55,347 bases of DNA from a virus (Duplodnaviria > Caudoviricetes), in the IMG/VR virus record IMGVR_UViG_3300046170_000038, positions 1 to 55,347 of that record; one strand, given 5' to 3'. The notes beneath the pieces are model-generated. The model ran no database searches and had not been told where the DNA came from. It saw nothing but the letters and a program-made list of their open reading frames with translations. The stretch's first letter is position 1. Each line of letters opens with the position of its first letter. The position numbers were made by a program, and so were the translations under genes. Below are positions 3,012-53,184 of this stretch, one piece after another.

Positions 3012-3040
3012 TTGACACCTCCCTATGGTACTTATATAAC
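3012..3040 (+). promoter_or_regulatory. Sigma70-type promoter
   Basis: TTGACA-N17-TATAAC. Confidence 0.7.
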
Positions 3041-5541: not shown

Positions 5542-6375
5542 ATGGCTTTAGATTTTATTCCAGAGAACCTTGACTTCGCAGTAGCGTTTGAGGACACAAA
5601 AATGCACGACAAAAAGTATGTGCTTAATGCAGACACTGGCAAGTACATGGGTATTGTTGGTCAAGGCTTTCAGTGTGCCAGCCACGGTGATTTCTTCCGA
5701 GGTGTATGGGACACAGTGACAGAGGAAATGTCACCTAATGAGTTAGCAGATGCAGACTTTACATGGCATACTGCTAGAGGTGGGGCATGGGCAATGCTTG
5801 ATGTTACCTTACCCAACATGCGTAGTACCATAACTACAGACAAGCATGAGACTAGCATTGGCAATCGTATCATTAGTCTGCATGGCATTGATGGATCATG
5901 CAGCAATCAATCTTACTTTGGTGCTATTGATTACTTCTGTAAAAACGGAATGATCAGTGGTGACTATGACAAAATCCGTAAGAAGAACACAGCCAACTTT
6001 ACCCTTGAGGGTTTCATCTATGAGTTGGCACGTGCAAGGGCTAGTTTCTATGACAACGCTGCAAAGATGCAGGTGTGGGCTAACACCTCAACTAAATATG
6101 TAGATGTTAAGTCTTTGCTTGATGATATGATTTCATCTAAGCGTAAAGCAGAGAAAATGTTTCAGTTGTATAGCCATGAGGCCAGTGTACGTGGGCATAA
6201 CAAGTTCTCTTTGTACTCTGCCTTCACCAACTATGCCAGCTATGCTGATGAACGTAATGGGTTCAGCCTCAAGAATACTGGCAATGATACACAGGCAGTC
6301 AGCATGTGGTCACGTGAGCAAGAGGTGAGCAAGTGGGTCAGTGATCCTAAGTTCATCACATTGGAAGCTGCATAA
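5542..6375 (+). CDS. DUF932-family protein
   Basis: GIVGQGFQCASH, HGIDGS, DYFCKNGM and LYSAFTNYAS pattern; ATG 5542 after AAGGAA. Confidence 0.75.
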   Translation: MALDFIPENLDFAVAFEDTKMHDKKYVLNADTGKYMGIVGQGFQCASHGDFFRGVWDTVTEEMSPNELADADFTWHTARGGAWAMLDVTLPNMRSTITTDKHETSIGNRIISLHGIDGSCSNQSYFGAIDYFCKNGMISGDYDKIRKKNTANFTLEGFIYELARARASFYDNAAKMQVWANTSTKYVDVKSLLDDMISSKRKAEKMFQLYSHEASVRGHNKFSLYSAFTNYASYADERNGFSLKNTGNDTQAVSMWSREQEVSKWVSDPKFITLEAA

Positions 6376-7499
6376 TGACTAAGTTGCCACGATATGTACA
6401 GCCACGTAAACAACCCAAGGGTGTAGTGTCTTATCGCTTCAACCCACCTCAGTCTCTTGTTGATGCTGGGGTGGTGAGCCGCAAGGAATGGGGTACTGAT
6501 CTTAAACAGGTTAAGGTACTCGCCAAAGAGTTGAATGACTTAGTTGACAAGTACCGTGAAGAACAGGCATTGATATTCAATGTTAAGCCAAGCAGCACTG
6601 TTGCAAATTTGTCACAGTATTACTTTGCCTCTAATGATTTCAAGGCGTTACGTAATACAACTAAGGTACATTACAGGTACTTCATTGGTCTACTGGACAA
6701 TGCCATAGGTCACATGAGGCATGGTGATGTTACCTCTAAGGTTGCAAAGCATTTGTATGAACAGTGGGTTGAGCAAGGCATTAGCTTTGCCAATCATGGT
6801 GCTACCTGTGCCAGCCGTGTCTTTAACTACGCCATTGAAATGGAACAGATTAACACTAATCCTTTCACCAACATTAAGCGTAAGGCTACACCACAACGTA
6901 AGGTAGTATGGGAACATGCTGATGTGACTAACTTTATGGACACCGCCTTCAGTAAGTACAAGTACCGTAACGTGGGCATGATCGTGGCTATGGCCTATCA
7001 GTGGTGTCAAAGACTAGGTGACATGCGTATGCTTACGTGGGATGCCCTTGACTTAGACAGGCAGCGCATGTACCTTGAACAGTCTAAGCGTAGGGCAGAG
7101 GTGTTCCTACCCATTGATGATCAGTTACATGTAATGCTCAAGGAACAGCATGAGGACTACGGCTTTCAGCCTTATGTTGCACCCCACCCTACACCTGTAG
7201 GTGGTACGTTCAAACCCTATGGCATGGAAAGACTATCTAAAGTAGGACGTAGGGTAATGCGAGAGGCTGAGTTACCAGAAAGCCTACGCCTTATGGACTT
7301 ACGTAGGACAGGGGTAACACAAATGGTTGAGGCAGGTGTACCATTGCCACAGTTGATGGCTGTTACTGGTCACACACATGTTGCATCTGTGAAACCATAC
7401 ATAAAAAATACATTCGCCTCTGCTAATAAAGCCTTGACAGCACGTAATGCTCATGTAGAATTGAGTGTAACGAAGAACATTGAAAGTGATTGGCTATGA
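6375..7499 (+). CDS. int: Tyrosine recombinase/integrase
   Basis: CQRLGD (Arg), QSKR (Lys), DLRRT, TGH and KPY catalytic motifs. Confidence 0.9.
   Translation: MTKLPRYVQPRKQPKGVVSYRFNPPQSLVDAGVVSRKEWGTDLKQVKVLAKELNDLVDKYREEQALIFNVKPSSTVANLSQYYFASNDFKALRNTTKVHYRYFIGLLDNAIGHMRHGDVTSKVAKHLYEQWVEQGISFANHGATCASRVFNYAIEMEQINTNPFTNIKRKATPQRKVVWEHADVTNFMDTAFSKYKYRNVGMIVAMAYQWCQRLGDMRMLTWDALDLDRQRMYLEQSKRRAEVFLPIDDQLHVMLKEQHEDYGFQPYVAPHPTPVGGTFKPYGMERLSKVGRRVMREAELPESLRLMDLRRTGVTQMVEAGVPLPQLMAVTGHTHVASVKPYIKNTFASANKALTARNAHVELSVTKNIESDWL
7434..7461 (+). promoter_or_regulatory. Putative promoter for primase/helicase inside the 3' end of int
   Basis: TTGACA-N16-TAGAAT. Confidence 0.55.
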
Positions 7500-9533: not shown

Positions 9534-9703
9534 TAAATAGAGACACACACAGAGAGTTATGTGAAAAGTATGAGGCGGTAAAACGTGACGCAAAGTATTG
9601 GGAAGCACAAGCTAAGACATTACGTACACGTAACGTACATTTACTAGAAGATGTAGAAAGACTGTCTGCACAATTAAGGTTATGGAAAGGTACAGCACCG
9701 TGA
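9530..9703 (+). CDS. Small coiled-coil hypothetical protein
   Basis: ATGA overlap with the helicase stop; GAGG SD. Confidence 0.6.
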   Translation: MINRDTHRELCEKYEAVKRDAKYWEAQAKTLRTRNVHLLEDVERLSAQLRLWKGTAP

Positions 9704-10131
9704 ATAACTATGTATATACAGCCATTGGACTTGTGGTATTTTACATTGGCCTTAAGATGTTTAGTGGTGGTATGAAATCTATGGGTAACATAGACCACTT
9801 GACTTGGTTCTTGGGCAACCCAATCTATATGTTCTTTGGGTCAATCGCTATGACACTGGCATGGCAGAGTAGTAGCCTTAGTACTACAGCAATCATTGCT
9901 TTGGTTGCATCAGGTGTACTACCCTTACCTGCTGCTGTGGCTGCTGTATTAGGGGCTAACATAGGTACAACAGGGACTATCTGGTTGGCAGGGCTGCTAG
10001 TGTCTGACGGTATGCCAAGGGGTGACACACTACGCATAGCCATGATACACACTGGCGTTAATCTTTTGATGGCGATAAGTCTATTGCCATTTGTAAATCA
10101 CATAGCTAAGTATGTTGGGAGAGTAGGGTGA
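9700..10131 (+). CDS. Single-repeat Na+/Pi cotransporter family membrane protein (NptA/SLC34-like)
   Basis: WQSSSLSTT and GANIGTT signatures, RIAMIHTGVN helix; hydrophobic throughout; GTG start at 9700 inferred from the GTGA overlap and SD. Confidence 0.85.
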   Translation: MNNYVYTAIGLVVFYIGLKMFSGGMKSMGNIDHLTWFLGNPIYMFFGSIAMTLAWQSSSLSTTAIIALVASGVLPLPAAVAAVLGANIGTTGTIWLAGLLVSDGMPRGDTLRIAMIHTGVNLLMAISLLPFVNHIAKYVGRVG

Positions 10132-11291: not shown

Positions 11292-13331
11292 ATGATACTG
11301 ACACTAGACGTAGAGAATACAACGACAACACGTGATGGCAAGCTGCACCTTGATCCATTTGAGAAAGACAATTCATTGACACAGGTAGGTACACTGGATC
11401 AATCAGGTAACGAACACATCTTTACCTTTGACCATTCAGAAAAGCAGGGTACACAATTTGATCACCAATGTGTGCAGTCAATGCTTGACAAGACTACTGT
11501 ACTGGTTGCACACAATGCTGTACATGACTTGCTGTGGTTATGGGAGTCAGGCTTTACATATGATGGTAAGGTGTTTGACACCATGCTTGGTGAGTATATC
11601 TTACAGCGTGGGCAGAAGCAACCCCTATCCCTTGATGCATGTGCAGAGCGTTACGCATTAGACACACAGAAGCAGGATACACTCAAAGAGTATTTCAAGA
11701 AGGGCTACACCACACGTGACATACCCTTGGCTGAGTTGACAGAGTATTTGTCCCATGACCTACATGCTACACAGCAGTTGTACAATACAATCACTGCCAA
11801 GCTAGATGGTACTACCCTGCAGGACAGTGTTGATCTGACTAACCAACTTGCTATACACCTTGCTAAGATTTATCAGCGTGGCTTCAAGGTTGATACAGAT
11901 GCACTAGAGGCAGTACGTAAAGAGTACGAGGATGAACGTGACGAGTTAGTGCGTAGTCTTGAGGCACATACACATGAGTTGATGGGTGACAGACCTGTGA
12001 ACCTTAACAGTCCAGAGCAACTTGCATGGGTTGTGTATGGTCGTAAGCCTGATGACAAAAAGGTGTGGCCTACATTGTTTGAGGGACGTATGGTAGATGC
12101 TAAGTTCAAGTCTACCGTTACCAAGCACTCAACCAAGTTGTACAAACAGAAGGCAAAACAATGCAAGTCCTGCTACGGTAGTGGGCAAATCAGGAAGGTA
12201 AAGAAAGATGGAACTCCTTTTGCAAGACCCAACAGGTGTGTCGGGTGTGATGGTTGTGGGTATACTTTTGTGGATACTAACCAGTTAGCTGGCCTACAAT
12301 TCACTGCACCGACTGCCAAGTTCATCAGTGCCAATGGTTTCAGTACAGGCAAGGACAGCCTGACATACCTTGAGGGTGTGGCTAGAGCCAAGCAGATGCC
12401 AGAGGCAGTCAAGTTTCTACAGAACATGAAGCGTCTGAATGCCATTGAGGTATACATTGCCAGCTTCATTGGTGGTATTGCTACCCACACCAAGGCAGAC
12501 GGTAAGCTACATGCCCGTCTACTGCAGCACAGGACAGGTACAGGCAGACTATCAGGTGCTGACCCTAACATGCAGAACATGCCACGTGGCGGTACATTCC
12601 CTGTCAAGCGTGTGTTTGTATCACGATGGGATGGTGGACAGATTATGGAAGCTGACTTTGCACAGCTAGAGTTTCGTGTCGCTGCATTTCTGTCTCAAGA
12701 CATGGTTGCCATTGACGAGGTTATCACTGGCTTTGATGTACATGCCTACACTGCCAAGACCATCACAGATGCTGGTCAACCTACAGCTAGGCAAGCTGCC
12801 AAGGAACATACCTTTGCTCCACTGTTCGGTGCTACTGGGTATGGACGTACACCAGCAGAGGCTGCATACTACACAAAGTTCATGGACAAGTACAAAGGTA
12901 TTGCTGCATGGCACAAGAGACTAGCCGACGAGGTACTGGCTACTGGCTGCATTACCACACCATCAGGCAGGGCATTTGCTTTCCCTGATGCTACCCGTAA
13001 CAAACATGGAGGTGTGACATATTTCACACAGATAAAAAATTATCCGGTGCAATCCTTTGCAACGGCTGACATTGTACCTATATGTCTGATATACATAGAC
13101 AAGATGTTGGAGGCAAACAAGATGCAGAGTTGTATAGTCAACACCGTACATGACAGTGTGGTACTTGACATACACCCTGATGAAACAGACAAGGTACTCA
13201 AGATCATAGACAGAACAAACGACAGGCTGATATCCATTGTCAATAAGAAATGGAATATAGACTTCAACATTCCTCTATTATTAGAGGCAAAGATTGGCCC
13301 GAATTGGCTTGACACCAAAGACGTAGCATGA
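11292..13331 (+). CDS. polA: Family A DNA polymerase with 3'-5' exonuclease and inserted DnaJ-type zinc finger
   Basis: Exo motifs LDVE and HNAVHD; CKSCYGSG...CVGCDGCG insert; TGRLS, ADFAQLEFR, motif B KEHTF and VHDS. Confidence 0.95.
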   Translation: MILTLDVENTTTTRDGKLHLDPFEKDNSLTQVGTLDQSGNEHIFTFDHSEKQGTQFDHQCVQSMLDKTTVLVAHNAVHDLLWLWESGFTYDGKVFDTMLGEYILQRGQKQPLSLDACAERYALDTQKQDTLKEYFKKGYTTRDIPLAELTEYLSHDLHATQQLYNTITAKLDGTTLQDSVDLTNQLAIHLAKIYQRGFKVDTDALEAVRKEYEDERDELVRSLEAHTHELMGDRPVNLNSPEQLAWVVYGRKPDDKKVWPTLFEGRMVDAKFKSTVTKHSTKLYKQKAKQCKSCYGSGQIRKVKKDGTPFARPNRCVGCDGCGYTFVDTNQLAGLQFTAPTAKFISANGFSTGKDSLTYLEGVARAKQMPEAVKFLQNMKRLNAIEVYIASFIGGIATHTKADGKLHARLLQHRTGTGRLSGADPNMQNMPRGGTFPVKRVFVSRWDGGQIMEADFAQLEFRVAAFLSQDMVAIDEVITGFDVHAYTAKTITDAGQPTARQAAKEHTFAPLFGATGYGRTPAEAAYYTKFMDKYKGIAAWHKRLADEVLATGCITTPSGRAFAFPDATRNKHGGVTYFTQIKNYPVQSFATADIVPICLIYIDKMLEANKMQSCIVNTVHDSVVLDIHPDETDKVLKIIDRTNDRLISIVNKKWNIDFNIPLLLEAKIGPNWLDTKDVA

Positions 13332-13337
13332 TATAAC
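13309..13337 (+). promoter_or_regulatory. Sigma70-type promoter for the SSB operon
   Basis: TTGACA-N17-TATAAC(TAC). Confidence 0.7.
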
Positions 13338-35603: not shown

Positions 35604-37346
35604 TTATCCAAGGGCGATTGCTAAAGCTGTTGCTTCATCTTGTGCGGTACTTGTTACGACTGCAGTAGTTGCAAGTGTACCAGCAGTACTAGGTAGTGTC
35701 AAGGTAATATCTGCAGTAGATGCAGGGACCAATTAAGGTTACTTTGTTTGTACCGTTATCACTATCCTCAAAGAACTCAAGGAACCCTGCAGAGGTAGAA
35801 CCATTCTTTAGCTGAACCCCTGCGTTTGCTATTGGGGTAGTTAGTGTAGCGTAGTAAGTGTTTTGTTTGTGAGTGTCTTAGAGGTAGCTGACAGATATGT
35901 ATCAAAGGTATCTACTGTAGTTTGGCGCATAGTGCCATTATCATTAGTAACAATACCGTCACCACCAGCTACAGCCGTAGTACCTGCAGAGGTATCCCCA
36001 TCCATTATATTAAGCTCAGTAGCTGTTGAAGTTACTGCTACATCTTCGTTAATCTTAGGAGAGGTTAGTGTTTTGTTTGTCAGTGTATCTGTAGATACAA
36101 GTGATACCAGAGTAGAGTTAGCACCTGCAGGTAACATAAGAGTATTAGTTACTCCTGCTGAGTGTGGTTGACCATATACTTTTTGACCATGACTGTTACT
36201 TTCACAGTTAAAGACAACAGCACCTGAGTTAGTGTTACCACGTACAACAACAGTGCCTGTACCATTAGGTGCTAAGTCTAGTGTAGCATTAGAAGTAGTA
36301 ACAATATCATTGCCATTAAGGTCTAGGTTGCCGCCTAACTGTGGGGTGCTATCTTCTGCTACATTAGAAATAGCACTAGAGGTAGCAAGGCCAGAGACTA
36401 CAGTACTTCTTGAAACTTTCTTTAAACCACCACCAGAAGTATCCAATGCAAGGAATACATCATCATTAGCAATAGTACTAATCTCTGATAGACTACCTAT
36501 TGTACTACCACTAGCATCAAGAATGTTTAACTCAGCAGCAGTTGCTGTTACCCCATCCATAATGTTTAGTTCTGCAGTAGTGGCAGTAACACCGTCCATA
36601 AGATTTAGCTCTGCTGTTGTAGCAGTTACACCATCCATGATATTAAGTTCAGCAGCAGTAGCTGAGATAGCTGTACCGTTGTAGTTAATAGCATCTACGT
36701 AAGCTGTACCATCAATGTACAAGTCACGCCATTCCTGACTAGACGAACCAAGATCGTATGCACTATCTGTATTAGGAATAATACTTGAGTTTACATCAGC
36801 ACCAAACACAACATTATCTGCTGCTGCATCACCTAAAGTAATTGTACCACCATTGAAGGTAGTAGTACCTGTTACTGTAAGATTGCCACCAATACCCAAG
36901 TTGCCTGAGATATCAGCATTACCATTCATGTCAATAGTAGTAGCTGCAATCTGTATCTCTGTATCAGCTACAAGGTCAAGCTGCCCGTCAGTACTAGAAT
37001 TAATATAGATAGCACTATCACGAAACTGTAACTTTTCCGCAGCCGCAATAAGTATATCATCAGAAAACTCAAAGTAATCCTCATCCTCCATCCACTTGAA
37101 TACACCGTCATTACTCTCACCATCAAAGGTTACTGTAATGTCTGTACCTGCAGTACCGTCACCCATCGTAATAGATGTACCAAGCAGCTTAGTAATAGGA
37201 CCACCTTCTGCAGTAGTCCCGTCATGTGTGTGGCCTGTACTTGCGGCAAAGGCAGCTAATAGCTGATCAAACTCATTGTTAGTGTGAGCCGCCGTAATTG
37301 TATCGCCATCTGTATATGATGATTGTCTTGAATATGTAGCACCCAT
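35604..37346 (-). CDS. Main tail fibre (indels near 35855 and 35727)
   Basis: N-terminus Y-x-RQS...GHTHDG; AELNIMDG repeats; reading continues by frame changes to ATALAIALG* at 35604. Confidence 0.75.
36520..36665 (-). repeat. Imperfect 39-bp tandem coding repeat (TATxAELNIMDGV) x about 4
   Basis: Seen in the translation of 35841..37346; a further copy near 36010. Confidence 0.8.
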
Positions 37347-39085
37347 CTAACGTCTTGCTCCTAATTGATATTCTAGCTGAAACCCTTTAAGTGAGTACGG
37401 GGCAGTAGTACCACCGTCTTCTACTTTTAATGCAACTGAAAAACCAGAACCTTCTACTGGTTGACGTACAAGGGGCTGGGTTGGCCCACCATAAACAAAC
37501 TGTGTTGCACTGCCTTCTGTGCTGTACGTAGCAGAACCATACTGTGCAGCCACGTTAGCTGTGTCTAGTGGGTAGTTTGCAGGTCTAGCAGAATCTGTAT
37601 CTTCATTGTCATATCTAAGTATTAAGTCAGCATCAATGTCTGCTTCTGGTTTGTAGTTAATGATAACCCGTTGCATGTGCTTACGGATACCAGTATCACC
37701 AAAGCTCATGTCAGGACTTCTGTATCTACCTAAGATAGCTGTACCATCAAAGTCATTGCCTGATTCTTGTCTTTGTATAAAGCCTGTAGTGTCACCGTGA
37801 AGAACAATTACATCACCTGACTCAACAAAAGGTATCCGTACAAGCTACCTGTATGCCTCTTGTTTCAGAAAACTCAAATGCTTCTTTCTTAAGAACACAA
37901 ATAGCACCTTTAGATAGTGACTGCCCTTGCCCATCTTTAGTAAAGAATATGCGGTATTGGGTCTTATCGGGTATAACTACGGAGTCAAACGATCCAGCAT
38001 CACTGATGTTCTCATCAAATACAGTTTGGATGTTCTTACTAATAGTACCCTAGTTCAGTATCACCAATACGTGCAGTCGCAGCAACAGTACGTAGTCCAT
38101 CAGGACCAAGAAATATTAAGTCACCTGCAAATTCCTGCACGGTAAAGCTGTTAATGCATCCAATGTTTCTAGTAACAGGTTGTACAGAAAAGTCAGAAGA
38201 ACTAGAACCAGTAAGTTTAAATATCCTGTTTTCACAAAAGATAAACAAGCTATCACGGAAAACCTTTAGTGCAACTACAGTATCATCAACCTTAATACTA
38301 CCTGCACCTTGACCACTATTAAACCCGTCTTCATCAAACGGCTCACTAAATACTACCTCTTGTGGTGTAGTAGACTTACCACCATAAAACATATGATTTC
38401 TATATGCAGCCACAACAGTAGCACCTGTTACACTACTATCACTAACATCTGCTGCTGACATAGAAGTGTTAAATATTACAGGAGCATTAACCCCATCCAC
38501 ACAGATAATCTTTTCGTTACCGTCAAAGTTATATCTTTCAAAGTGGTACTTTGCAGCACTGGTTCTACCTGTGTCTCTAACAGTCCAGCTTTCTGATACT
38601 ACATCAAGTTTAGCATGTGCTGCTGCAGTAGAAGATACAGCCCTAGTTACACCTGTAAAGTTAGTAGATGTTTTACCTGTGTAAGTAAATATCTCTGAGT
38701 TAATCTGTAATGTGCCACTAGAAGAAAAACCTAATGTAGATGGTACAGTAATAGTACCTGATCCTGTCATGCTTGTATCTGCTGCAATAGCAATAGACAA
38801 CTCAGCAGAAGCAGAACTAAATATCTTTTCACCTCTGGCTGCTATTACTTTATTGTCAAAGTTAGCAATCATTAGCAGTGGCTCAGAGCTAGAACTAGTT
38901 TGAGGCACAATAGCATTTACATATTTACGAAAACCACTAATACGTCTATAGCCACCTGAAATGTCAGGCTCAAAGTTTTCTAGTTGTAGTGCCTCTCCCG
39001 GTTGCATAATAAAGTTAGATCGGTTAAGAACTAATCCACCTTCACAGTTAAATGCAACTGGCTGTGTCTGGGAACTATCAGGCAC
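37347..39085 (-). CDS. Tail tubular/nozzle protein (broken by indels near 38048 and 37830-37850)
   Basis: ORFs 38039..39085 and 37347..37709 are linked by continuous coding in shifted frames; beta-rich; follows the adaptor gene. Confidence 0.7.
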
Positions 39086-40027
39086 TAGCTTACAACCCCT
39101 GACATAAAGTTAACAGAGCCACGTGGTCTTAATACAACAGTAGACCTAACGTACTCATATTTATTAATTAACAAACTTTGCATGTTCTTAATACCCTGCT
39201 CAAACCTAGCAAAGTTTAATTGATACTGTTGCATTTCACCACGATACTGATATACAAAAGCAGAAGCACCATCTACAATTACAGGTGCAAACCTTTCAGG
39301 TATAGTAGTAGTATCTCCATGTGCAGAAAGATTAGCAGGAAATGTATAGTAATCAAATGTTAAAGTGTATTCTTTATCAGGAAATGGATGAAGTAAAAAA
39401 TTATTATCAGGTGTACGGAATAATACTTCTAGGTACACCGCCATTATCAAATTGAGCTACAAATACTCCATCTGCATGTGTAGCTGCAGTAGTGCTATTA
39501 GCACCACGTGTACAGCCTGTAAGATCATTACCTGATATAGCAGGTATATGTTACTTGCTCACTACCAAGATAAATAGTACCAGATGCATCAAAACCTGTA
39601 GTAGATGTAAGAGTTAGCGTTGCTACAGAATCAGAATGTGAGCCATTTAAAGTAGTAGATGCAATGTCATCTTCTTGATTAGGCATACTCATTCTGTATA
39701 TATTCATTATAGTTTAATGTACTAAGATTACTACCAGATGCATTAAGGCGTAGTACTTTTCTTTATCCTAGCTGTATTGTAGTCTATTGATTTAGTACTA
39801 GTAGGTACAGTATACCTAACTTTTCCCGGCACTAATGTTTCTGTATTAGTAGCGTGATTAAAAGAATATCCAAACTCACGTTGATTAATATATCGTATAG
39901 ACTCATTAACTGCATTTTTACATTGTATTTGTACGCCCCTAGCACTAGTAAAGTTACTAGAGGTAAGCTCTACTTCATTCATACGAGTGATGACACTGTT
40001 AGCTAATGTTAAATAAGTAAGAGCCAT
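39085..40027 (-). CDS. Tail adaptor/tubular protein A (about four indels)
   Basis: MALTYLTLANSVITRMNEV start at 40027; C-terminal part HPFPDKEY...TTTIPERF in 39085..39450. Confidence 0.7.
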
Positions 40028-40088
40028 TATAATTCCTAAATAGATTTTTGCCCCAAGAATTGTTTGTTGCATAAACTTGATGCACCAA

Positions 40089-40114
40089 TGGGGCCAGCAT
40101 ATAGCCAGCCCCAA
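40089..40114 (-). terminator. GC-rich hairpin after the capsid/decoration genes (terminator or stabiliser)
   Basis: GGGGCTGGC-TATAT-GCTGGCCCC on the - strand; U-tract is poor. Confidence 0.5.
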
Positions 40115-40128
40115 AGTATATAGGTTTA

Positions 40129-40664
40129 TTAAATGAGGTCACGTTGAGCAACAGCAGCCTCAGTCTTTGCAGCCTGAAACATCTGCAACTACTGCATATA
40201 CCCGAAGGCGTCCAGTAGCAGGTGCAGCACCAGCAACAAGAACGTCAATGGTATCAGCAGCACCAACACATGCCAAAGCAGCAGCAGCAAACGTAGAAGC
40301 TGCGCCTGTATTGACAATGTTAGCTTCACCGTTAGTACCTTTTGCAAGGTATGTACCAGCAGCAGCAGTCAAGTCAGCACCGTCAATAATGTCATCGCCA
40401 CCAGCGAAGTCAATATCTGCAGTACAAGAAGTCGTGAAAGGTTTCATGATTTCTGCACCAGCAGCAACGATAACTGATTCAGCAGGGATTTCTAGTAGTT
40501 GAAAGATATCACCAGTTTGCGCCAGAGTAACCAGCAGTAACCATTGCATCAATATCTAGGATTGCTTCAATGGTGCGTACAGAGTTACCAACTACTGTTG
40601 GAACAGCAAGAACATTTGCTCCAACACCAGCGGTATCACTGGAAGTCATATCATAAGTAGCCAT
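40129..40664 (-). CDS. Capsid-associated (decoration/cement-like) protein (two +1 indels near 40517 and 40173)
   Basis: MATYDMTSS start with GGGGGA SD directly after MCP; removing two bases gives a 177-aa ORF. Confidence 0.65.
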
Positions 40665-40676
40665 GTTATATCCCCC

Positions 40677-41750
40677 TTACGCTGCGTTATATTTGGCAGT
40701 AACGATACCTTCAGGACGAAGAATCTTTCTACCGTATAGATGCATACCACGAACAATGTCAGCAAAGCTGTCAGGGTCACGATATGTTTCTGTCTTATTG
40801 ATCTGCTCGGCAGTTGCTACAGCAGAATCATGTCCAGCAACAATAACACCAAAGTTAGAGTTTTGGTTAGAAGCACCAGATGTTCCCGGTCCAGTACCTA
40901 CCGCTGGCAGGTTAGACGAAGAATATACACGGAAGCCGTGGAAGTTATTGAGAACAAGACCATTACGAAGTCCACCTGATTCACCGAAGTCTGCATTCAT
41001 GAAGCGTGAATCTTCATCAGCAAGAATTTCCATGAATACTGGATCAACTACAATCCAACGGCCTTGTTTGTCAACTTGCTGTTGATCAAGCAAACGAGCC
41101 ATACGAGCAACAACCATTGCTGGTGAAGCCGTAGCAGTTGGAAGTGCAGTAGCACCGGGCAAACGTGCAGCCAGAGGAATAGAGTGTGTTCCTGCAGAGC
41201 TTGTAGTGATGTTGCCAAAGTCATCTTTATGCAGTTGCATAGAGGAAAGCAGTTCGTTAGAACCAGCAGTTGATACCGCTTTAGTACCGTTCACAGTAGT
41301 GTTCAGTGCATCAGCTTGTGAGTGCAAAGAAGACTGTTTGTAACCAGACATGTAGCCAAGAACTTCTTGGTCATGCTGATCAGCAAGACGGTATGCAGCA
41401 CGGTTAGAAGCAAGGTCCATGAAATTTACATGCGAATGTGCTTCTTCAATATCGTCCATTTTAAAAGCAAAATAGTTTGCTTTGTCAATGACTAATGAGA
41501 AATCTTCGTCTTGCAAATCTTGCGCTGTGACATTTGTGCCACGTGCATATTCGCTTACAGAGATTTCGGGTTCTTTAATGATCTTGACGGTATCGCCTTG
41601 ACCACTAATTTCTCCGAAATAATCAGAGTTAGTAATGTCACCACAGACGGTAGACTTGCGGAAGGCAAGTTGTACCTGTTTGCTGTAAATGACTGGGCTA
41701 AAATTACCATTAGGTAAATTACCATAACCCGTAGCTGTCGTAAATGCCAT
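40677..41750 (-). CDS. Major capsid protein
   Basis: GNFSPVIYSK, ITNSDYFGEI, GDTVKI and DSFADIVRGMHLYG; follows the scaffold gene. Confidence 0.92.
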   Translation of the reverse strand: MAFTTATGYGNLPNGNFSPVIYSKQVQLAFRKSTVCGDITNSDYFGEISGQGDTVKIIKEPEISVSEYARGTNVTAQDLQDEDFSLVIDKANYFAFKMDDIEEAHSHVNFMDLASNRAAYRLADQHDQEVLGYMSGYKQSSLHSQADALNTTVNGTKAVSTAGSNELLSSMQLHKDDFGNITTSSAGTHSIPLAARLPGATALPTATASPAMVVARMARLLDQQQVDKQGRWIVVDPVFMEILADEDSRFMNADFGESGGLRNGLVLNNFHGFRVYSSSNLPAVGTGPGTSGASNQNSNFGVIVAGHDSAVATAEQINKTETYRDPDSFADIVRGMHLYGRKILRPEGIVTAKYNAA

Positions 41751-41801
41751 TGTATTATTCCTTTGCATTAAGACACAGATACAAACTTAAATGTAATTAA
41801 T

Positions 41802-41952
41802 GAGGCTAATTCTTTTGGGTAACATTATTGTAAAAAGTTGGCCGACCTTTTACGTAACGGGCCACAAGACTTTAGGTAGTCGTTAGCACTATTCATGTTT
41901 GTGAAAGTAGATTTAACACAGGTAGTCCAAATAAGTAGGGGGCTGTGTTAAA
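41802..41952 (-). promoter_or_regulatory. Structured 5' leader of the capsid mRNA
   Basis: 10-bp stem 41912-41952 and multi-stem domain 41802-41881 with CC/YUAC internal loops. Confidence 0.65.
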
Positions 41953-41965
41953 CCTGTTGTATATA

Positions 41966-41998
41966 GTTATATTGTTTATTTAAGACTTGTCAAGTCTT
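41966..41998 (-). promoter_or_regulatory. Capsid promoter with a palindrome over the -35
   Basis: TTGACA-N16-TATAAC(TAT); AAGACTTG-T-CAAGTCTT at 41982-41998. Confidence 0.7.
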
Positions 41999-41999
41999 T

Positions 42000-42869
42000 T
42001 TATCGTGCGCTACCAGAAATATCGTAAATAAATTCACCTTTTCTAATAGCATCCATGATCTCATCTTGATGTTTCTCGTATTCTTTAGTAGACATTTTAT
42101 TAACACGTGACTCAGACATTTTAGTATTGTTAGATGTAGCGTCTGGTTGACCACGTGTATTACGAGTATTCACCGACTTAGCAGCTTCTTTGTTACTGCT
42201 AGGTTTCTTTGTTTTGATATTCATGTCTGCTTTGTACAAATCAATAGCACGTGCTGCAGACCTTGCATCATTATCATTTTCGTATAGTGCCTCTTGTACC
42301 CACTTAGGCTGTTCTTCTGCCCACTCATGGAACTCATCACTGTCACGTATCTCACCAAAGTCAGGGTGGGCTTTAAGTAATTCTACTTCAGCTTTCTCAC
42401 GTGATGCACTTTCCCGTAATGTATCAATTTCTTTAATACGTTCTTGTAAACCTTCTTGTTGTTCACGTGCTTTCTTAATAGCAATAGTTTCAACAATAGC
42501 AGCTACATCTGGATACTGGCTTGCCCATGCATCTATGTCTTCATCTGACTTAGGTAATTTAATTTCTTGTGCAGTACTTTGTTTTAATTGTGACTCTAGT
42601 GTAGTAATACGAGCTTCTAAGTCTGCCTTTGCTTTCTGTGATCCTCTACGTAAATCAGCATAGCGTTTCTTATAACTCTTTTCTTCTGCACCTTCTGGTT
42701 CTGCATCTTCTTTGGCCTGTACTTCAGCTTCTTTTTCTGCGCCTTCACGTTCTGCCATTAACTCACGTAGTTTTTTTTCGTCTTCCTCTACACGTTCATG
42801 CACTCTACTTTTACGTTGCATCATCATTGACTTGGGCGGTTCTTGTGCCTCTACTATTTGGTTTTCCAT
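42000..42869 (-). CDS. Capsid scaffolding protein
   Basis: Charged coiled coil; YKKRYADLR, HPDF, FHEWAEEQP and IDLYK; upstream of MCP. Confidence 0.85.
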   Translation of the reverse strand: MENQIVEAQEPPKSMMMQRKSRVHERVEEDEKKLRELMAEREGAEKEAEVQAKEDAEPEGAEEKSYKKRYADLRRGSQKAKADLEARITTLESQLKQSTAQEIKLPKSDEDIDAWASQYPDVAAIVETIAIKKAREQQEGLQERIKEIDTLRESASREKAEVELLKAHPDFGEIRDSDEFHEWAEEQPKWVQEALYENDNDARSAARAIDLYKADMNIKTKKPSSNKEAAKSVNTRNTRGQPDATSNNTKMSESRVNKMSTKEYEKHQDEIMDAIRKGEFIYDISGSAR

Positions 42870-42883
42870 TTTAGTTCCTATTT

Positions 42884-42930
42884 ACTGGGGCCACCGTAGC
42901 CTGTGTTATAAGGGGAGTGGGTAGGCCAGT
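42884..42930 (-). promoter_or_regulatory. Structured RNA element upstream of the scaffold RBS
   Basis: ACUGG-CCUAC-CCACU-CC-CCU-loop-AGG-CUAC-GGUGG-CC-CCAGU. Confidence 0.65.
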
Positions 42931-42943
42931 TCTAATTAGCTGT

Positions 42944-43138
42944 TTAACGTGCAGCTAAACCACGTTTAGGGACAGGTTCCGCTGTGGCAAATTGCCCTAG
43001 CATACGATCAAACTCTGCGCCAAAAACTTTTGCAATAACTTCTCTTACAGGTCCATTCATTGCTTCACGAATAATAGTTTTCTCTTCTTCTGATAGTTGT
43101 TCGTAGTTATTCCAAACTTCAATAAAATCAATTTCCAT
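42944..43138 (-). CDS. Small hypothetical protein
   Basis: TAATG-coupled; ends RGLAAR. Confidence 0.7.
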   Translation of the reverse strand: MEIDFIEVWNNYEQLSEEEKTIIREAMNGPVREVIAKVFGAEFDRMLGQFATAEPVPKRGLAAR

Positions 43139-46100
43139 TACTTTACTATTCCTTTATTATACAGGACAGTCCAATCTTTTTGATCTGTAAATAATCCAAT
43201 GCTATAGCAAATAGCTTCACCTACATTTTTAATAAGGTATCCTAGCACTGACCTCTTTTTATATTCTTGAGGTTTAACTATATGGGCTATCTCTTTAGCT
43301 CTCGCTATTGTAAGATATTCAAAAACATTTGTCAAGAGGGTAGATGATCTCATTTTAACAACCATAGGTACAGCCCAATAGTGATAGCCACGTACTGTAA
43401 TAGGTGACAAATGTTTGGCTGTATATACTACATCCATACGATACAGTTCACGGTCTAGCTTACCCTGCTTGTACAATTCAGTACAGATAACACGTGAGCT
43501 ACTACCATCACCGCCACCACGATCTATTTCCTGTTGAGCGCTTTCTCCCGGCCCACCACCATCAAACATATCTACAATGCTAGTAAATCCACCTGTATTT
43601 CCCGGTGGGTCTGCAGGTTTACTAGGTGTGCCTCCACTACCATCACTAGTATTATAACGTACACCGTCTTTAGTTACCTGTTTAGCTGTAGCTGTAGCAG
43701 GTGTACCACCTTTGTCTTGTTGTGTAATTCCCGGCCCTTCATACTTGTCACCATTTAGTTTAGTCTTTTTACCAAATGTACTCTTAACAAACTTAGTACC
43801 TTCAGCATCACTAAACACTGTCATAGCAGCACGTTGACCTGTAGCATTAGGATCAAGGTCACGAACTTTAGTAACCTTACCATCAGCTTTTTGTAAAACA
43901 CCAGCTTCATTACCATCACTACCAGATATCTTACCAATAGCATAGCCGCCTGTAGTACTACCTACGTAGCCAGCTTTAATTGAGTCTTGTGTTTGTTTAG
44001 AGTTTGCAATGTATGCTGGTATCTTAGAGGTTGCTGTAGCAATTTCTTTATTACGTGTTTGTATTCTAGTCCTTTGTGCTGCAGCTTCTCTGGCTCTAGT
44101 TTGTGCTGCAGTTTGTTGTTGTGCAGCTACATCTAAAGAAGCATCTTTAAAACCCGGCTCAAGTTCATCTCCAAAAATAGAATACCTTTTATCTTGTTCT
44201 GCAATAAATGGAGTTCCCCCAATATAAGAAGTATCACCAAATGCTTGTTTTGTTTGAATAGGTCCAAACATATCAGGCGATGCTTGAAGTGCTGCAGCTT
44301 CCCTTTGTGCTTGAGCATTAAGATTTTGTGCAGTGTATTGAAAAGCATCTGGGCTTGGATAACTTGGAACAAATCTATCAGAAGCAGGGCCATATGTTTC
44401 TTCTGCACTGACTGTAGTAGGTTTAACAACAGGAGATAAAGGAGAACCCATGCCTTCTGTTTCACGTGGGTCTTGCATTTGCACACCAACTTCATCATAG
44501 CTACTTTCTACAGATGTTTGTGGTTGTTTTTGTAAAACTCTATTTGCTTGACCTGCTTCGGCGGGAGCAACTACATAATTAACTGGGGGCATGTTTTGCA
44601 TTGCAGCATACATATCACTTTCGTAACCTGCACGTTGGGAAGGTCCATAGTTTTGTTGAGTTGTTTCTAATGAAGTATAGTCAGGTTTATCTTCTCTTAT
44701 TAAATTAGGTTTAGTTGGCGTGTATCTTTTTTTAAATTCTTGATCCCTTTGAAATTTTGCTAAGTTTTGTTCTGCTTCTGTAGGTTGTGGAGGTTGTACA
44801 TTTATACCCGCTTCATCATACCCTATTAAATTTTTATTAAATTCAGGGGCGTCAAAGTCAGGTCCAGTGCGTTCAGGACGTACATTAGGTTTTAATGCTT
44901 CTTGACTAGTAAGGTAGTCACCTGTACCAATCATTGAATTAATAGAAGATGGCCCCGTTTCAGATGCAGAACGTATTGGAGATAAAGCAGTTTGAGGTGG
45001 TCCTGCCCTAAGAGGTGACGTTAAAGGAACTGGTTTTTTTGAAGTAAGAGATTTATCTTTTGTAGAAGTAGGTGTTTGTATATTACCTGCTGCTACTCTA
45101 GCTCCCATACCGGGAAATGCAGTAGGTTGTCTAGGGTCTTGATTAGTAAATGTACCAATAGCTGTACCTTGTGGTCCTGTTTGAGTAACAGGTGCAGTAA
45201 CACTAACATCAGGCCGTAATATAGGTTTAAGACTTGTTGTAGGTGCAGCAGCAGTAGCAGGTTTAGTACCACTTACCTCTGTCACTGCAGCATTCTGTGC
45301 AACCTTTGCAGCATCCTCTTGATTAATGCCAAGTGCATTAGCAACAGGAGTAACAAGACCTGTAACAAAATTTGTTATGTTAGCAAACAGTCCTTCTTTT
45401 TTCTTAGGGTCTGTTTCACCACCATATTCTTTATAAAGTGCTAGTGCATTAGTTTTAGCTGGGCCATTAGGCATATTATCTATGCGGCTTTTCATATTAG
45501 CCATTTGATTATTTTTATTGTTACGCATTAAAGCACCAACTAATAAACCAACAGGGCCACCTACCATAGTAGCAATAGCTAAACCTGCAGCATTACCTGC
45601 TTTAGCACCAAAGCCATTTTGTTCTGCCATATAACTAAAAAACTCATCGTCATTCATATTTCTATAGTCAGGTGCTGGTTGATCTGGCTGTGGCTCTGGG
45701 CCTTCATTATCACCAGTAGTAGGTCTATAGCTACGTCTATTAACAGTCTGAATAGCTGCCTGTGTAGTTGTAGGTGCTGTGTTAGCAGGTGGTGTGTACA
45801 GTGTATACCCTGCAGGTATTTCAGTAGTAGCTACTCCATTTACAGATGTAATAATAATAGAGTTACCATTAGCGTCACGATATTCCTGCATAGTTACTAC
45901 AGGTGTCTTCATAAAGTCATCATACACAATAGGTGTCTGCGTACCAGTAGATGTACCACCACCCATCGTAGGTACAGGTGCTGTTTGTAATGTCTGCATT
46001 TGTGGTACAAATCCACCCTCTGCAAATTCCATAGGCTCACCTTCACCACCTACAACAATAAGATCAGCCATACCAAATGGTAAGTCATCAGGCATAGTAG

Positions 46101-46380: not shown

Positions 46381-46585
46381 TCTGTAGTACCTCTTCTCTA
46401 AGTAAAAGTAATCTGCGTAATGTATGTATTGCGCCTTGCGCTCTATAAACTATAACACTTTCGTCTGTTTGCTCCATAGTGCGATGCTGTTGTTTAATTA
46501 AGTCCTCAACATAATTATTGAATTGGTCCCATTCCTGCTGGTTGACCACCAGCGGCTTGAGGTTGTTGAGTAGGTTGCTGTTCAT
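46364..46585 (-). CDS. Small protein downstream of portal
   Basis: MNSNLL...YRAQG...LLLLREEV; AGGA SD before 46585. Confidence 0.65.
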   Translation of the reverse strand: MNSNLLNNLKPLVVNQQEWDQFNNYVEDLIKQQHRTMEQTDESVIVYRAQGAIHTLRRLLLLREEVLQNGSNG

Positions 46586-48645
46586 TTCCTGTAAATCCTT
46601 GTTGTCCCGGCGCAGGTACTCCACCTGTACCTATAGTTGCACCACCAACGCCAGATGCGTCTACTGGTGGTTGTCCACCTTGGGGTGGTTGTGGCTGTTC
46701 CTGTTGAAAGCCCTTCATCATTTCTGCTTGCAGTGCAGCTTCATTCATATTGTTTGTTACTTTGTCTGGGTCAAGATCAAGAGACTTTGCAATCTCCCGA
46801 ATAATATAATCAAACTTAGTAAAGGGTGCTAGTGACGGTGCGGCTGCAATCTGCATAAACTGTGTAAGACGTTGACTACGTACCTCATTAGCCATAAGAC
46901 TTTCAGTACCACGTGCCTTTACTTCCAAGTCACCCTTAATGTCAGGGTCAAAGTCAAACTGCATGTTAAACCTAAACAAACCCTCACCTAGTGGACGTAG
47001 TAAGTAGTCATCAATGTTTTTAACTACAGACTTAATACTTCCCTGTGCTGCGCCCATAAGCATACTAATGCCTGATGCAGTTCTACCTACACCTGATACA
47101 CCTGTCTGTCCATGAGCAAAGCTAGGAAAGCCAGTACTTTCATCTGCAAGTACACGTGCCTTATCAAACAGTTGCAGATTTTCTCCTGATACATTAGGAA
47201 ACTTAGTACCAAAAATAGCCTGTCCCGGTGCGCCACCTTGACGCCTAAAGACCTTGCCGGGATACAATGACAAGTCTTGACCGGGAACTAGGTTTGTTTC
47301 ATCAATCTCTATAAGTAAGTTACCCGACAGTACGGCATTATCTACAGCCATACGCATAAAACCATTCATCAATGTTTGAGTATCGTCCATGTTTTCAGCG
47401 ATACCTACACCAAAGAAGCTATAGGGATTGAGTTCATACGGGGCAGCATGATACGGTATACGGGCAGGTTTAAATGGATTAATTACCATACGTAGTAGTT
47501 TACCATTACACACCCAAACATTAGCCTGTAGTTCATCTACATCACTAAGCTCAGAGGGAATGTCTACGCCCTGTTCTTCTAAAAAATCTACATCAACCAT
47601 GCCCCAGTACTCTAGTACCTCATAGCGTTCTACGCCATGTTCAGGTGCATAGTCAGATAGATCATCTTCCCAAAATTCTTTATTATAATTCTCGCCAAGT
47701 TGTATTGCTTCATCAATTACATTGTCTCTAAAGAAAGGACGTTTCTTAAGTTGACGTAACTGTGTACGTGACATTTTATGACGTTCAATTACATACTGTG
47801 CTTCATCCATATTGTTTGCATCTGGATCAGGATAAAAGTTCCACACAGATACATGAGATACCTGTGGTACTGTTTTAATAGTGGGGCTATACTCACCCTC
47901 TTCATTCCAATGAGGGTACTCTTTGTCAACAGCAAATGGACCCTTCATAACACCAGTGCCAAACAATGCCATTTCAAATGCAGTATTACGTAAATGTTTA
48001 CTTGCATTAGATTCTTCTAGCTGATCCTGTATTTTCTTTTGCATTTTCTTTGCAGCTACCATAGCTGGACTAAATGTAATAGCGGTAGGTGTCATGCCTG
48101 TGCCATTTTTTAAACCATCTACGCCACGTAGTTTATCTGTAAAGGAGCCAAGCATTTCGCCTAGTGTTTTACTTGTAGCACCTTTAGCTAGTTCTTTACC
48201 GTCACCTTTAAATCCATACGGAGTTACAGGATCGTTTTCTTCTGACTCTTTAATTTGCTCTGGTTCTTTAGGATCAAAGTTTACATCTGACACTACGCCC
48301 TCTGGTAATTCAGTAGGGTCTACTGTAAGAGGAAACTTATTATTAGCAAACATAATAGACTCAAGCTGCTGATATGCAGCTAGTGTTTTAGTTTTAGTAA
48401 CCTTAATAAAAACTCTTGACTTTTCAGCTTCAGTAAATTGTACATCAGGGACCGTATATACCACGATAGTTTCTGTATGCAGCTAACCAGCGTTGTTCAT
48501 CTTGATTACGATAATCTTCTGCACGTTTAAATCGTCCCTCAATATAAGGAATAATGTTATTGGTTTGATAATCGTCTATAGAAGACTGTTCACTATCTTC
48601 TAGTACTATTGATTCGTCTTCAATGAATGTATTATCTTCGTCCAT
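46515..48645 (-). CDS. Portal protein (one +1 indel near 48449)
   Basis: 48445..48645 (...YRNYRGIYG) joins PDVQF... in 46515..48464; FGTGVMKGP, NFYPDP and FFGVG. Confidence 0.9.
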
Positions 48646-52890: not shown

Positions 52891-53072
52891 TACTTGTATC
52901 CTCCCCCAGCTTTCTTGTAACGAGAGGCAACAAGCTGTGCTTTACGGGCCGACCACTGGCCGGGGCTTCCACCTTTGCTGCCAGCTTTAACGGAATTAAA
53001 AATACGCTTACGCATACTAGGCTTAGTATAATTACCTGCCGCATTAACGGTAGACTTTTTGCCTGATTTCAC
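52890..53072 (-). CDS. Small basic protein
   Basis: NYTKP...GGSPGQWSARKAQLVA...YKKAGGGY. Confidence 0.75.
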   Translation of the reverse strand: MKSGKKSTVNAAGNYTKPSMRKRIFNSVKAGSKGGSPGQWSARKAQLVASRYKKAGGGYK

Positions 53073-53184
53073 CTCTTGTTACTCCTATGTCTCTAAGAGC
53101 TTTATCTGACATATGTTGTAATTGCCAGTATGCTACTCTACGTTCTTGTGCTTGTTGTATTGTTTTAATAATATTCTTGAACAT
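53044..53184 (-). CDS. DUF1127 (YjiS-like) small protein, 46 aa, not in ORF track
   Basis: MFKNIIKTIQQAQERRVAYWQLQHMSDKALRDIGVTRGEIRQKVYR with L-x2-MSD-x2-LRDIG-x-TR-x-EI signature; AAGGAG SD. Confidence 0.88.
   Translation of the reverse strand: MFKNIIKTIQQAQERRVAYWQLQHMSDKALRDIGVTRGEIRQKVYR

Follow-up and report, generated by a model that had tools for sequence, protein, structure and literature searches.

Conserved leader RNAs with a recurrent CC/(N)YNAC internal loop upstream of the scaffold-like and capsid genes of HMO-2011/CRP-type marine podoviruses

Background

The scaffolding protein of phage P22 reportedly regulates its own synthesis post-transcriptionally, a finding attributed to Casjens and Adams and to Wyckoff and Casjens, both in 1985 (cited in PMC5529062). 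To our knowledge, no RNA operator has been defined in P22. That phage raised the question of how head-protein stoichiometry is set after transcription, but it offers no separable leaders for studying it: gene 8 begins 13 nucleotides (nt) past the portal gene and overlaps gene 5 at its end. Here we describe two structured leader RNAs in a phage that, unlike P22, has discrete leaders and a dedicated capsid promoter. The window, by which we mean the whole stretch of DNA that was analyzed, is the complete virus record IMGVR_UViG_3300046170_000038 of 55,347 bases, which has direct terminal repeats; judged by its sequence, it is an HMO-2011/CRP-type marine podovirus. The leaders precede a scaffold-like gene and the major capsid gene, whose products must be produced in a set ratio for head building. 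P22 and the window phage share this head-gene pair and the idea that free scaffold tunes its own synthesis after transcription. Since P22 has no comparable leaders, the precedent is conceptual only.

The coat-protein hairpins of MS2 and PP7 and the sites of T4 RegA are phage translational operators. The T4 gene 32 pseudoknot is a further one (PMC10690425). In each of these a phage protein reads a small structured RNA beside a ribosome site, and in this general arrangement the leaders resemble them. They show no sequence or structure similarity to those operators, however, and differ in that one module is used five times, in two messenger RNAs (mRNAs) and in both orientations. Fremin et al. (2023) mined candidate structured RNAs from IMG/VR, the data source of the window, and likewise found conserved intergenic structures upstream of phage genes (PMC10690425). 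Their sole listed candidate upstream of P22_CoatProtein genes, DNAVirus_7287, derives from the gut of humans and mammals and not from marine samples. Part of the leader described here may be among the 8495 unnamed candidates of that collection (PMC10690425).

Results and discussion

One asymmetric loop recurs in two leaders

An earlier note on this DNA had described a single asymmetric internal loop, CC opposite (Y)UAC, set in different stems on the minus strand. All five of its copies are present where it placed them, each in its own stem: two in the 74-nt leader of the scaffold-like gene and three in the leader of the capsid gene, which measures roughly 250 nt in the window and of which about 200 nt are conserved RNA in relatives. 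We interpret the five loops as parts of two cis-acting RNA elements that are conserved in HMO-2011/CRP-type marine podoviruses and would serve a shared binding factor, a proposal that we hold to be about evenly balanced between right and wrong. That the elements are functional structured RNAs is very probable in our judgment; the description as protein-binding operators is putative and comes, at best, up to an even chance.

The first element is a hairpin just 5' of the Shine-Dalgarno sequence (SD) of the scaffold-like gene, with two modules in the window. The second is a capsid leader of about 200 nt that would be transcribed from its own sigma-70-type promoter and would form a hairpin, H1, and two further helices, P2 and P3 (Table 1). 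P3 is nested in P2, and each of H1, P2 and P3 carries the loop. In both elements each helix would be interrupted by CC opposite (N)YNAC, with letters that stay fixed as the flanking helices change by compensatory substitution. The design is unusual, as one small asymmetric loop of fixed letters is used five times in two mRNAs.

The modules were evaluated against chance with a relaxed descriptor, namely CC opposite (N)YUAC with each flanking helix at least 2 base pairs (bp), the sum of both at least 5 bp and a span of at most 140 nt. This descriptor matched eight times in the 323 nt of both leaders, corresponding to the five reported modules and register variants of them. Dinucleotide shuffles of the leaders gave 0.86 +/- 1.06 matches, and 0 of 1000 reached eight. 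The density of matches genome-wide is 2.7 per kilobase on the minus strand and 3.7 per kilobase on the plus strand. A long-range match of a stricter descriptor (below), with a 10-bp stem at 40776/40657, was dismissed as chance; it reaches from the end of the capsid gene into the beginning of the following gene and does not occur in the minimum free energy (MFE) fold.

The RNA family is apparently new and undescribed, structured leaders of phage genes being themselves a known kind of element. The Rfam scan that the earlier note had proposed revealed no family covering either leader. Rfam 15 gave only two irrelevant matches in positions 40000-44000 of the window (E 0.2 and 6.4), and the best match in nine relatives was ctRNA_pND324 (34.4 bits, E 0.18; gathering score 45), together with a microRNA. 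In a literature search, 'HMO-2011' and 'structured RNA' did not occur together in any paper. An RNA family entry could be seeded with the covariance model and alignments described below.

Stems of the capsid leader covary around constant loops

A scan of viral contigs with the capsid protein produced 599 relatives in 600 candidate stretches, and 80 loci with 83-96% identity were retained. Seventy-five loci, the window counted in, carry both the scaffold-like and the capsid gene and provide 64 unique capsid-leader sequences, while 61 loci have sufficient upstream sequence for comparison of the scaffold leader. Applied to a plain MAFFT alignment, RNAalifold gave a spurious GGC/GCC helix and, of the leader structure, just the top of H1. 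Indels were the cause, and the structure was therefore drawn by hand (lower and upper H1, outer and inner P2, outer and inner P3; 27 pairs) and then tested. On the MAFFT alignment, 84.0% of the cells of H1, P2 and P3 are paired as compared with 69.8% after shuffling, and the covariation score is 0.354 versus 0.137 in shuffled alignments (0 of 500 as high) and at most 0.116 when the partners are slid. A second alignment of 73 matches was fitted to a covariance model built from the MAFFT alignment and consequently leans towards the proposed structure; here 87.8% of cells are paired, 22 of the 27 pairs change on both sides, and the score is 0.425 versus 0.142 shuffled and at most 0.097 slid.

The proposed pairing of H1 is very well supported, with changes on both sides at all nine lower-stem and all three upper-stem pairs in the model-fitted alignment (eight of nine and three of three in the MAFFT alignment). 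In P2, one pair of the model-fitted alignment is GC in 56 sequences and AU in 14, and inner pairs of P3 alternate between AU (33), GC (20) and GU (17) and between UA (40), AU (12), GC (9) and CG (1). Independent MFE folds of the 64 leaders contain CC/CUAC 42 times, the commonest of all internal loops, in addition to CC/CAC (29), CC/CCAC (9) and CC/UUAC (5).

The loop letters are much more constant than the stems in these 64 leaders. The short strand is CC in every leader at all three sites. The long strand of H1 reads CUAC in 50 leaders, CCAC in nine, UUAC and CAAC in two each and UCAC in one; that of P3 is CAC in 54, and long strands end in AC almost always. An additional insertion of about 45 nt, placed between P2 and the ribosome site, was observed in the 3' portion of the leader in two relatives (L059:690-958 and L075:2245-2518).

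These patterns could also be proposed to reflect resemblance by chance, or plain conservation of sequence that has no RNA function, such as at DNA-level sites. Loose descriptors match frequently across the genome, and G-U (58 cells) and A-C (64 cells) are balanced over all 27 pairs. Within the 20 well-aligned core pairs (1387 cells), however, G-U or U-G accounts for 45 cells and A-C or C-A for 14, and this excess favours the sense strand. Compensatory changes also maintain the pairing in relatives with unrelated helix sequences. Together, the covariation scores and the enrichment of modules in the window over all 1000 shuffles largely refute this explanation, and we regard it as extremely improbable.

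A small hairpin precedes the scaffold-like gene

The hairpin of the window, termed type B, reads ACUGG[CCUAC]CCACU[CC]CCU-UAUAACAC-AGG[CUAC]GGUGG[CC]CCAGU, and its three helices are all fully paired. It is dyad-symmetric, both strands having the form GG-CUAC-N5-CC-CC. Two modules of this kind are found in 16 of the 61 loci, a one-module hairpin (type A) in 39 and neither in six, so that 55 loci have a hairpin. The type A sequence is AUAAGG[CUAC]CCAGC-UACG-GCUGG[CC]CCAAC. All of its cells are paired (100%) in 30 unique sequences, with CG (18) or UA (12) as the pair that closes the loop. The loop letters are invariant in all 30, and the stems comprise 2 plus 5-7 bp and are longer in some sequences. 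Among ten unique type B sequences the lower stem alternates between CUGG/CCAG and CUAG/CUAG, and the apical stem is variable. A search of viral contigs with a pattern for this one-module hairpin yielded chiefly chance matches, with a hairpin in 21 of the 80 loci fetched.

A median of 5-6 nt separates the end of the hairpin from the SD, and about 15 nt separate it from the AUG. According to the predicted folds, the SD is mostly unpaired (median probability 0.96 for ten leaders of type B and 0.77 for 30 of type A). The hairpin by itself would therefore not mask the SD, and repression would require a bound factor.

The modules persist in distant genomes with different helices

DNA and capsid place the window nearest to the marine podoviruses Roseobacter phage CRP-9 (capsid identity 81%), Puniceispirillum phage HMO-2011 (72%), CRP-3 (55%) and, at a distance, Pelagibacter phage HTVC033P (38.5%). 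The strongest evidence for the modules comes from the more distant genomes that follow. The scaffold hairpin of HMO-2011 is GUUGG[CUAC]UCACU[CC]CCAUAC-loop-GUGUGG[CUAC]GGUGG[CC]CCAAC and that of CRP-3 is GGG[CUAC]CCG(C)AAAA[CC]CCGG-loop-CCGG[CUAC]UUUUCGG[CC]CCC; CRP-1, like these two, retains the loops within wholly different helices. One further contig (L114) keeps the loops around a middle helix UUAUC/GAUAA. Another (L127, reverse strand, about 400-500) has tandem one-module hairpins, GG[CUAC]CUUGU..ACAAG[CC]CC followed by GG[CUAC]CUUG..CAAG[CC]CC, in front of a distant scaffold homologue with 27% identity to the scaffold-like protein. The capsid promoter is retained as well in HMO-2011, CRP-1 and CRP-3, as are the modules of P2 and P3. 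The covariance model (R1) scores these genomes at 70.9, 70.8 and 43.8 bits, respectively, and the inner P2 helix of CRP-3 is CAG/CUG in place of CUG/CAG.

The elements are specific to their positions. The window contains one match to model R1. The scaffold-type pattern has one hairpin match, the one in the scaffold leader, in four of five relatives' records, one of which also contains one non-hairpin match; the fifth, a type B genome, has no match because of the spacing set in the pattern. Conservation across related phages, on which the earlier note had made its proposal depend, is observed: loop letters are invariant and flanking stems covary in exactly these two leaders, to which the modules are confined. 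A related capsid is encoded by at least 599 viral contigs, and the RNA element is kept in at least 73 of the sequences compared, including the cultured HMO-2011, CRP-1 and CRP-3 (SAR116 and Roseobacter hosts).

A proposed shared reader of the loops

Fixed loop letters in a small hairpin without a partner, the occurrence of the loop in both orientations and in two mRNAs, and the dyad symmetry of type B together favour a shared reader. From these features we infer that a factor binds, what it might be and in which direction it would regulate. The loops would be recognition sites for one common RNA-binding factor, possibly a dimer, that controls the translation or stability of both mRNAs; candidates are the scaffold-like and capsid proteins, some other small protein of the phage, or a protein of the host. 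The scaffold hairpin ends some 5 nt short of the SD and some 15 nt short of the AUG, and a factor on it would hinder binding of the 30S subunit. In the capsid leader of most relatives the 3' strand of P2 could alternatively pair with the SD GGAGG, such that formation or binding of P2 would free the ribosome site, and H1 may additionally protect the 5' end of the mRNA.

The capsid SD has a median unpaired probability of 0.03 over 63 leaders and is predicted to be paired in the GGAGG type, mostly with CCUC(UU), which is the 3' strand of P2 (CAG-CC-UCUU). For each of 14 representatives, its unpaired probability lies under the mean of the shuffles. As AAGA and GGAGG compete for the same UCUU, formation or binding of the P2 module would release the ribosome site.

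A more specific version, in which the loops are operators for a dimer of the phage's own scaffold-like protein, appears unlikely to us as it stands. Free scaffold protein would repress its own synthesis by binding the dyad hairpin at the ribosome site of its gene, and it would hold P2 and P3 of the capsid leader in the module fold, thereby releasing that ribosome site. If this were true, coat protein would be made only with scaffold available and the ratio of both would be fixed. Among tailed phages it would then be the first RNA operator to be defined that couples the synthesis of head proteins to assembly, and it would occur in one of the most often recovered marine phage groups. Should a binder of any kind be found, the cultured hosts and discrete operators would make this a tractable system for the long-open question of post-transcriptional head-protein stoichiometry.

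A DUF1127 protein was considered as binder and is a lead only. The window encodes one (a 46-amino-acid (aa) open reading frame (ORF) at 53044-53184, minus strand; PF06568, E 3.5e-10), as do the genome of L027, CRP-1 and CRP-3, and no such gene was found in HTVC033P or in HMO-2011, which keeps the modules. CcaF1, a member of this family, is an RNA-binding protein of Rhodobacter (PMC8034643), and small DUF1127 proteins are linked to PhoR in another study (PMC12501420). No binding motif for the family was found in a literature check.

Several results, including the DUF1127 gene not being found in HMO-2011, weigh against two conserved elements with a common reader. The first group of them concerns the structures themselves. 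Single-sequence folding of the scaffold leader is ordinary (z = +0.86, 163 of 200 shuffles fold as well), as is that of the capsid leader (z = -1.54, 13 of 200 as good). A stricter descriptor requiring both helices to be at least 3 bp catches just two of the five modules and matches 22 times on the minus and 44 times on the plus strand of the genome (66 in total), all matches other than these modules and the long-range one falling within ORFs. The case for the modules accordingly lies in the comparison with relatives. In that comparison, the proposed pairing of P2 and P3 has fewer varying pairs behind it than that of H1, and of the seven pairs next to the loops three are invariant (CG 70, GC 70, GC 70) and one nearly so (UA 69, AU 1). 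The relatives are also close (capsid 83-96%), which inflates the counts of covarying cells through shared descent and makes the shuffle controls something other than probabilities. The remaining points concern distribution and mechanism. The scaffold-leader module is missing from six of the 61 loci; inspection by eye did not reveal the CC of H1 in HMO-2011; and in HTVC033P the scaffold hairpin has CUAC opposite CA rather than CC, with just 31 nt and no long leader before the capsid gene. In the majority type, between 0 and 9 of 30 shuffles are as low as the observed SD openness. In the subgroup of the window the SD, AAAGGA, is weaker and is not sequestered, being unpaired at 0.46-0.47 as compared with 0.31-0.37 in shuffles; an SD switch is consequently not general. 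The 'scaffold' label of the 289-aa gene, finally, is tentative, with gene position and a weak Atlas lead behind it.

The proposal of an RNA operator system in the earlier note accordingly survives as a conserved RNA-level feature of exactly these leaders, with P22 as a conceptual precedent only. Its placement of the loops upstream of head-assembly genes holds for the capsid gene and, for the scaffold gene, through position and the weak Atlas lead only. Nothing in the analysis supports its other suggestion, a structural RNA for assembly or packaging.

Alternative proposals: architecture, processing and action in trans

The same structures could act as RNA alone. A 5'-terminal stem-loop can stabilise bacterial mRNA. 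H1 and the scaffold hairpin might, without a dedicated binder, stabilise their mRNAs against decay that depends on the 5' end or form ribosome standby or enhancer structures, and the conserved loops might be a C-loop-like architectural motif that sets helical twist. Taken together as one account, this strikes us as improbable. H1 begins 0-5 nt past the -10 hexamer in 49 of the 64 leaders and 10 nt past it in the window, and by this spacing it would sit at or close to the 5' end of the RNA.

C-loops occur in ribosomal RNA helices, the thrS operator and viroid loop 26 and are known as protein-binding and translational-control elements (PMC9516175, PMC2952876, PMC2441787). They raise helical twist (PMC2441787), two bases of their long strand making non-Watson-Crick pairs and triples with the flanking pairs. 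All five modules of the window and those of the relatives share with them an asymmetric internal loop flanked by Watson-Crick pairs in a hairpin stem. A long strand that usually begins with C and has two cytosines around an unpaired A is a further common feature (PMC9516175, PMC2952876). A long strand starting with C is found at H1 in 61 of 64 leaders (CUAC 50, CCAC 9, CAAC 2) and at P3 in the 54 of 64 with CAC. The loop of potato spindle tuber viroid (PSTVd) is 3x1, and the phage loops measure 4x2, 5x2 or 3x2 and always have CC as their short strand. The C-50 construct, parsed here as CACU opposite AG, differs from them in sequence, and its loop fits a 4x2 as well as a 3x1 reading (PMC2441787). 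The modules resemble the C-loop in general features. Action as RNA alone also leaves some features without an obvious role. The one-module hairpin of 2 plus 5-7 bp has no RNA partner to which the exact loop sequence would matter, and even so its loop letters do not vary among the 30 unique sequences; the same loop in both orientations and in two separate mRNAs suits a trans-acting reader better than a global fold; and the dyad symmetry of type B would have no obvious purpose.

A second known motif was noticed beside these loops. The strands joining P2 and P3 are AGUA-Y-AGGCC and CCCU-A-GAA in 45 of the 64 unique capsid leaders (e.g., L037:2289-2503 and L001:900-1135). They carry GAA/AGUA, the sequence signature of a sarcin-ricin (bulged-G) loop (PMC5737476), which would be stacked on P3. 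The signature is absent from the window and its subgroup, where the strands can, by eye, pair instead (UCUU/AAGA).

RNA-level data are available as metatranscriptome contigs, which give no transcript ends, strand or level and may include DNA carry-over. Contigs from all four runs compared (four studies) cover parts of the window. Listed contigs of runs X1, X3 and X4 span the capsid-leader sequence, and those of X7 stop at 41782, within the capsid leader, and cover the scaffold leader. One X3 contig (41509-42059) bridges the 3' end of the scaffold-like gene and the capsid leader. Variants among these contigs sit in loops or preserve pairing, for example G to A at 41858, which turns a G-U into an A-U pair.

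Processing signals for a double-strand-specific or structure-specific endoribonuclease of the RNase III kind, comparable to the intergenic sites of T7, would be another account of the two elements. The loops would direct a cut that detaches the scaffold and capsid messages from RNA upstream of them and leaves protective hairpins behind. The sites cut by RNase III in T7 RNA are hairpins that contain an asymmetric internal loop. Both elements are intergenic within one transcription unit, type B, H1 and P2/P3 each comprise about 13-20 bp plus loops, and the X3 contig fits a read-through RNA, weakly so because contigs alone, with possible DNA carry-over, are involved. RNase III, however, needs about two turns of double helix, for which the 7-9 bp of type A hairpins are too short. 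A capsid leader with its own promoter would also not need cleavage to obtain a 5' end, and no molecule starts or ends are listed for the metatranscriptome contigs, though contigs cannot show ends. Processing seems quite unlikely to us.

Alternatively, a host RNA-binding protein might be the target of the leader, which if abundant would work in trans as its decoy or sponge, or the leader might take part physically in head assembly or packaging. A strong consensus-like promoter, several identical modules per RNA and the presence of leader sequence among the contigs (capsid leader in X1, X3 and X4, scaffold leader in X7) would suit this. The leader is nevertheless joined to the capsid ribosome site in every case, no free-standing copy is matched by R1, no terminator separates leader and gene, and no data point to RNA inside these capsids. 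We consider such a role very unlikely and retain the shared reader in cis as the preferred interpretation.

Promoter, gene order and other features of the window

A promoter of the sigma-70 type, in which -35 and -10 hexamers are separated by 16-18 nt, precedes the capsid leader, the window having TTGACA-N16-TATAAC at 41993-41966. TTGACA-N15-18-TATAAC stands directly 3' of the scaffold stop in all 64 unique relatives, and the pattern matches three times in the window versus 0.13 expected. A general promoter consensus scan did not list it because its rule demands T at position 6 of the -10 hexamer; TATAAC presumably agrees with the alphaproteobacterial -10 consensus. Exact copies of TTGACA-N17-TATAAC also occur at 3012-3040 and 13309-13337 on the plus strand, which carries the early genes. 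The hairpin over the -35 box directly follows the scaffold stop codon and has no U-tract, and other hairpins occupy this place in relatives. No terminator is predicted between the capsid leader and the capsid gene in the window. The spacing from scaffold stop to capsid ATG is 227-310 nt in the 75 loci, all of which have an ATG at the aligned position of that in Table 1, so that capsid translation probably starts at ATG 41750 rather than at the ORF end at 41768.

Table 1 Features of the two leaders and neighbouring genes in the window
Feature	Position	Strand	Remarks
Portal gene	46515-48464	-	First of the listed late genes
1080-aa protein		-	After the portal in late-gene order
64-aa ORF	42944-43138	-	Between the 1080-aa protein and the 289-aa gene
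Two-module dyad-symmetric hairpin (type B)	42884-42930	-	Kept in 10/10 unique type B sequences
Type B lower stem	42930-42926 with 42888-42884	-	
Type B loop 1	CCUAC 42925-42921 opposite CC 42890-42889	-	
Type B middle stem	42920-42916 with 42895-42891	-	
Type B loop 2	CC 42915-42914 opposite CUAC 42899-42896	-	
Type B apical stem	42913-42911 with 42902-42900	-	Apical loop 42910-42903
Scaffold-like gene SD AGGAA	42879-42875	-	ATG 42869-42867; hairpin end 14 nt upstream of ATG
289-aa scaffold-like gene	42000-42869	-	Upstream neighbour of the capsid gene
7-bp hairpin over -35 box	41982-41998 (stem 41998-41992/41988-41982)	-	MFE and centroid folds
Sigma-70-type capsid promoter	TTGACA 41993-41988, 16-nt spacer, TATAAC 41971-41966	-	Pattern match
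H1	41955-41943 with 41921-41909	-	CC 41942-41941 opposite ACUAC 41926-41922; short apical CC/GG stem
P2	GA[CUAC]CUAA 41881-41872 with UUAG[CC]UC 41809-41802	-	
P3	UGG[CC]CGUUA 41864-41855 with UAAUG[UUAC]CCA 41827-41816	-	Apical hairpin 41853-41830
Capsid SD AAGGA	41763-41759	-	
Major capsid gene	40677-41768	-	Likely true start ATG 41750-41748 (MAFTT...)

For the 289-aa gene, PDB sequences gave no support, no Pfam or NCBIfam family scored above cut-off and PHROGs lists the function as unknown; the Atlas lead is to a scaffold cluster (score 0.93, 130 shared features) and is weak.

Elsewhere in the window, a tyrosine integrase (PF00589, E 1.4e-15) at 6375-7499 on the plus strand suggests that the phage may be capable of integrating. 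A 149-aa ORF at 9682-10131 on the plus strand matches the Na+/Pi-cotransporter family (PF02690, E 1.7e-14) and, with the DUF1127 ORF, may form a phosphate-related auxiliary gene set. On the minus strand an SU10-type adaptor (PF24175, phrog_10775; 39085-40114) is broken into two ORFs, an N-terminal part at 39743-40114 and a C-terminal part at 39085-39450, with a 59-aa ORF (39528-39707) between them. Coding-like sequence without an ORF starting at ATG, GTG or TTG was observed on the same strand at 37710-38049 and 35604-35840, and the overlapping stop-to-stop frames 37822-38049 and 37347-37844 could reflect a frameshift, an unusual start or a sequencing error.

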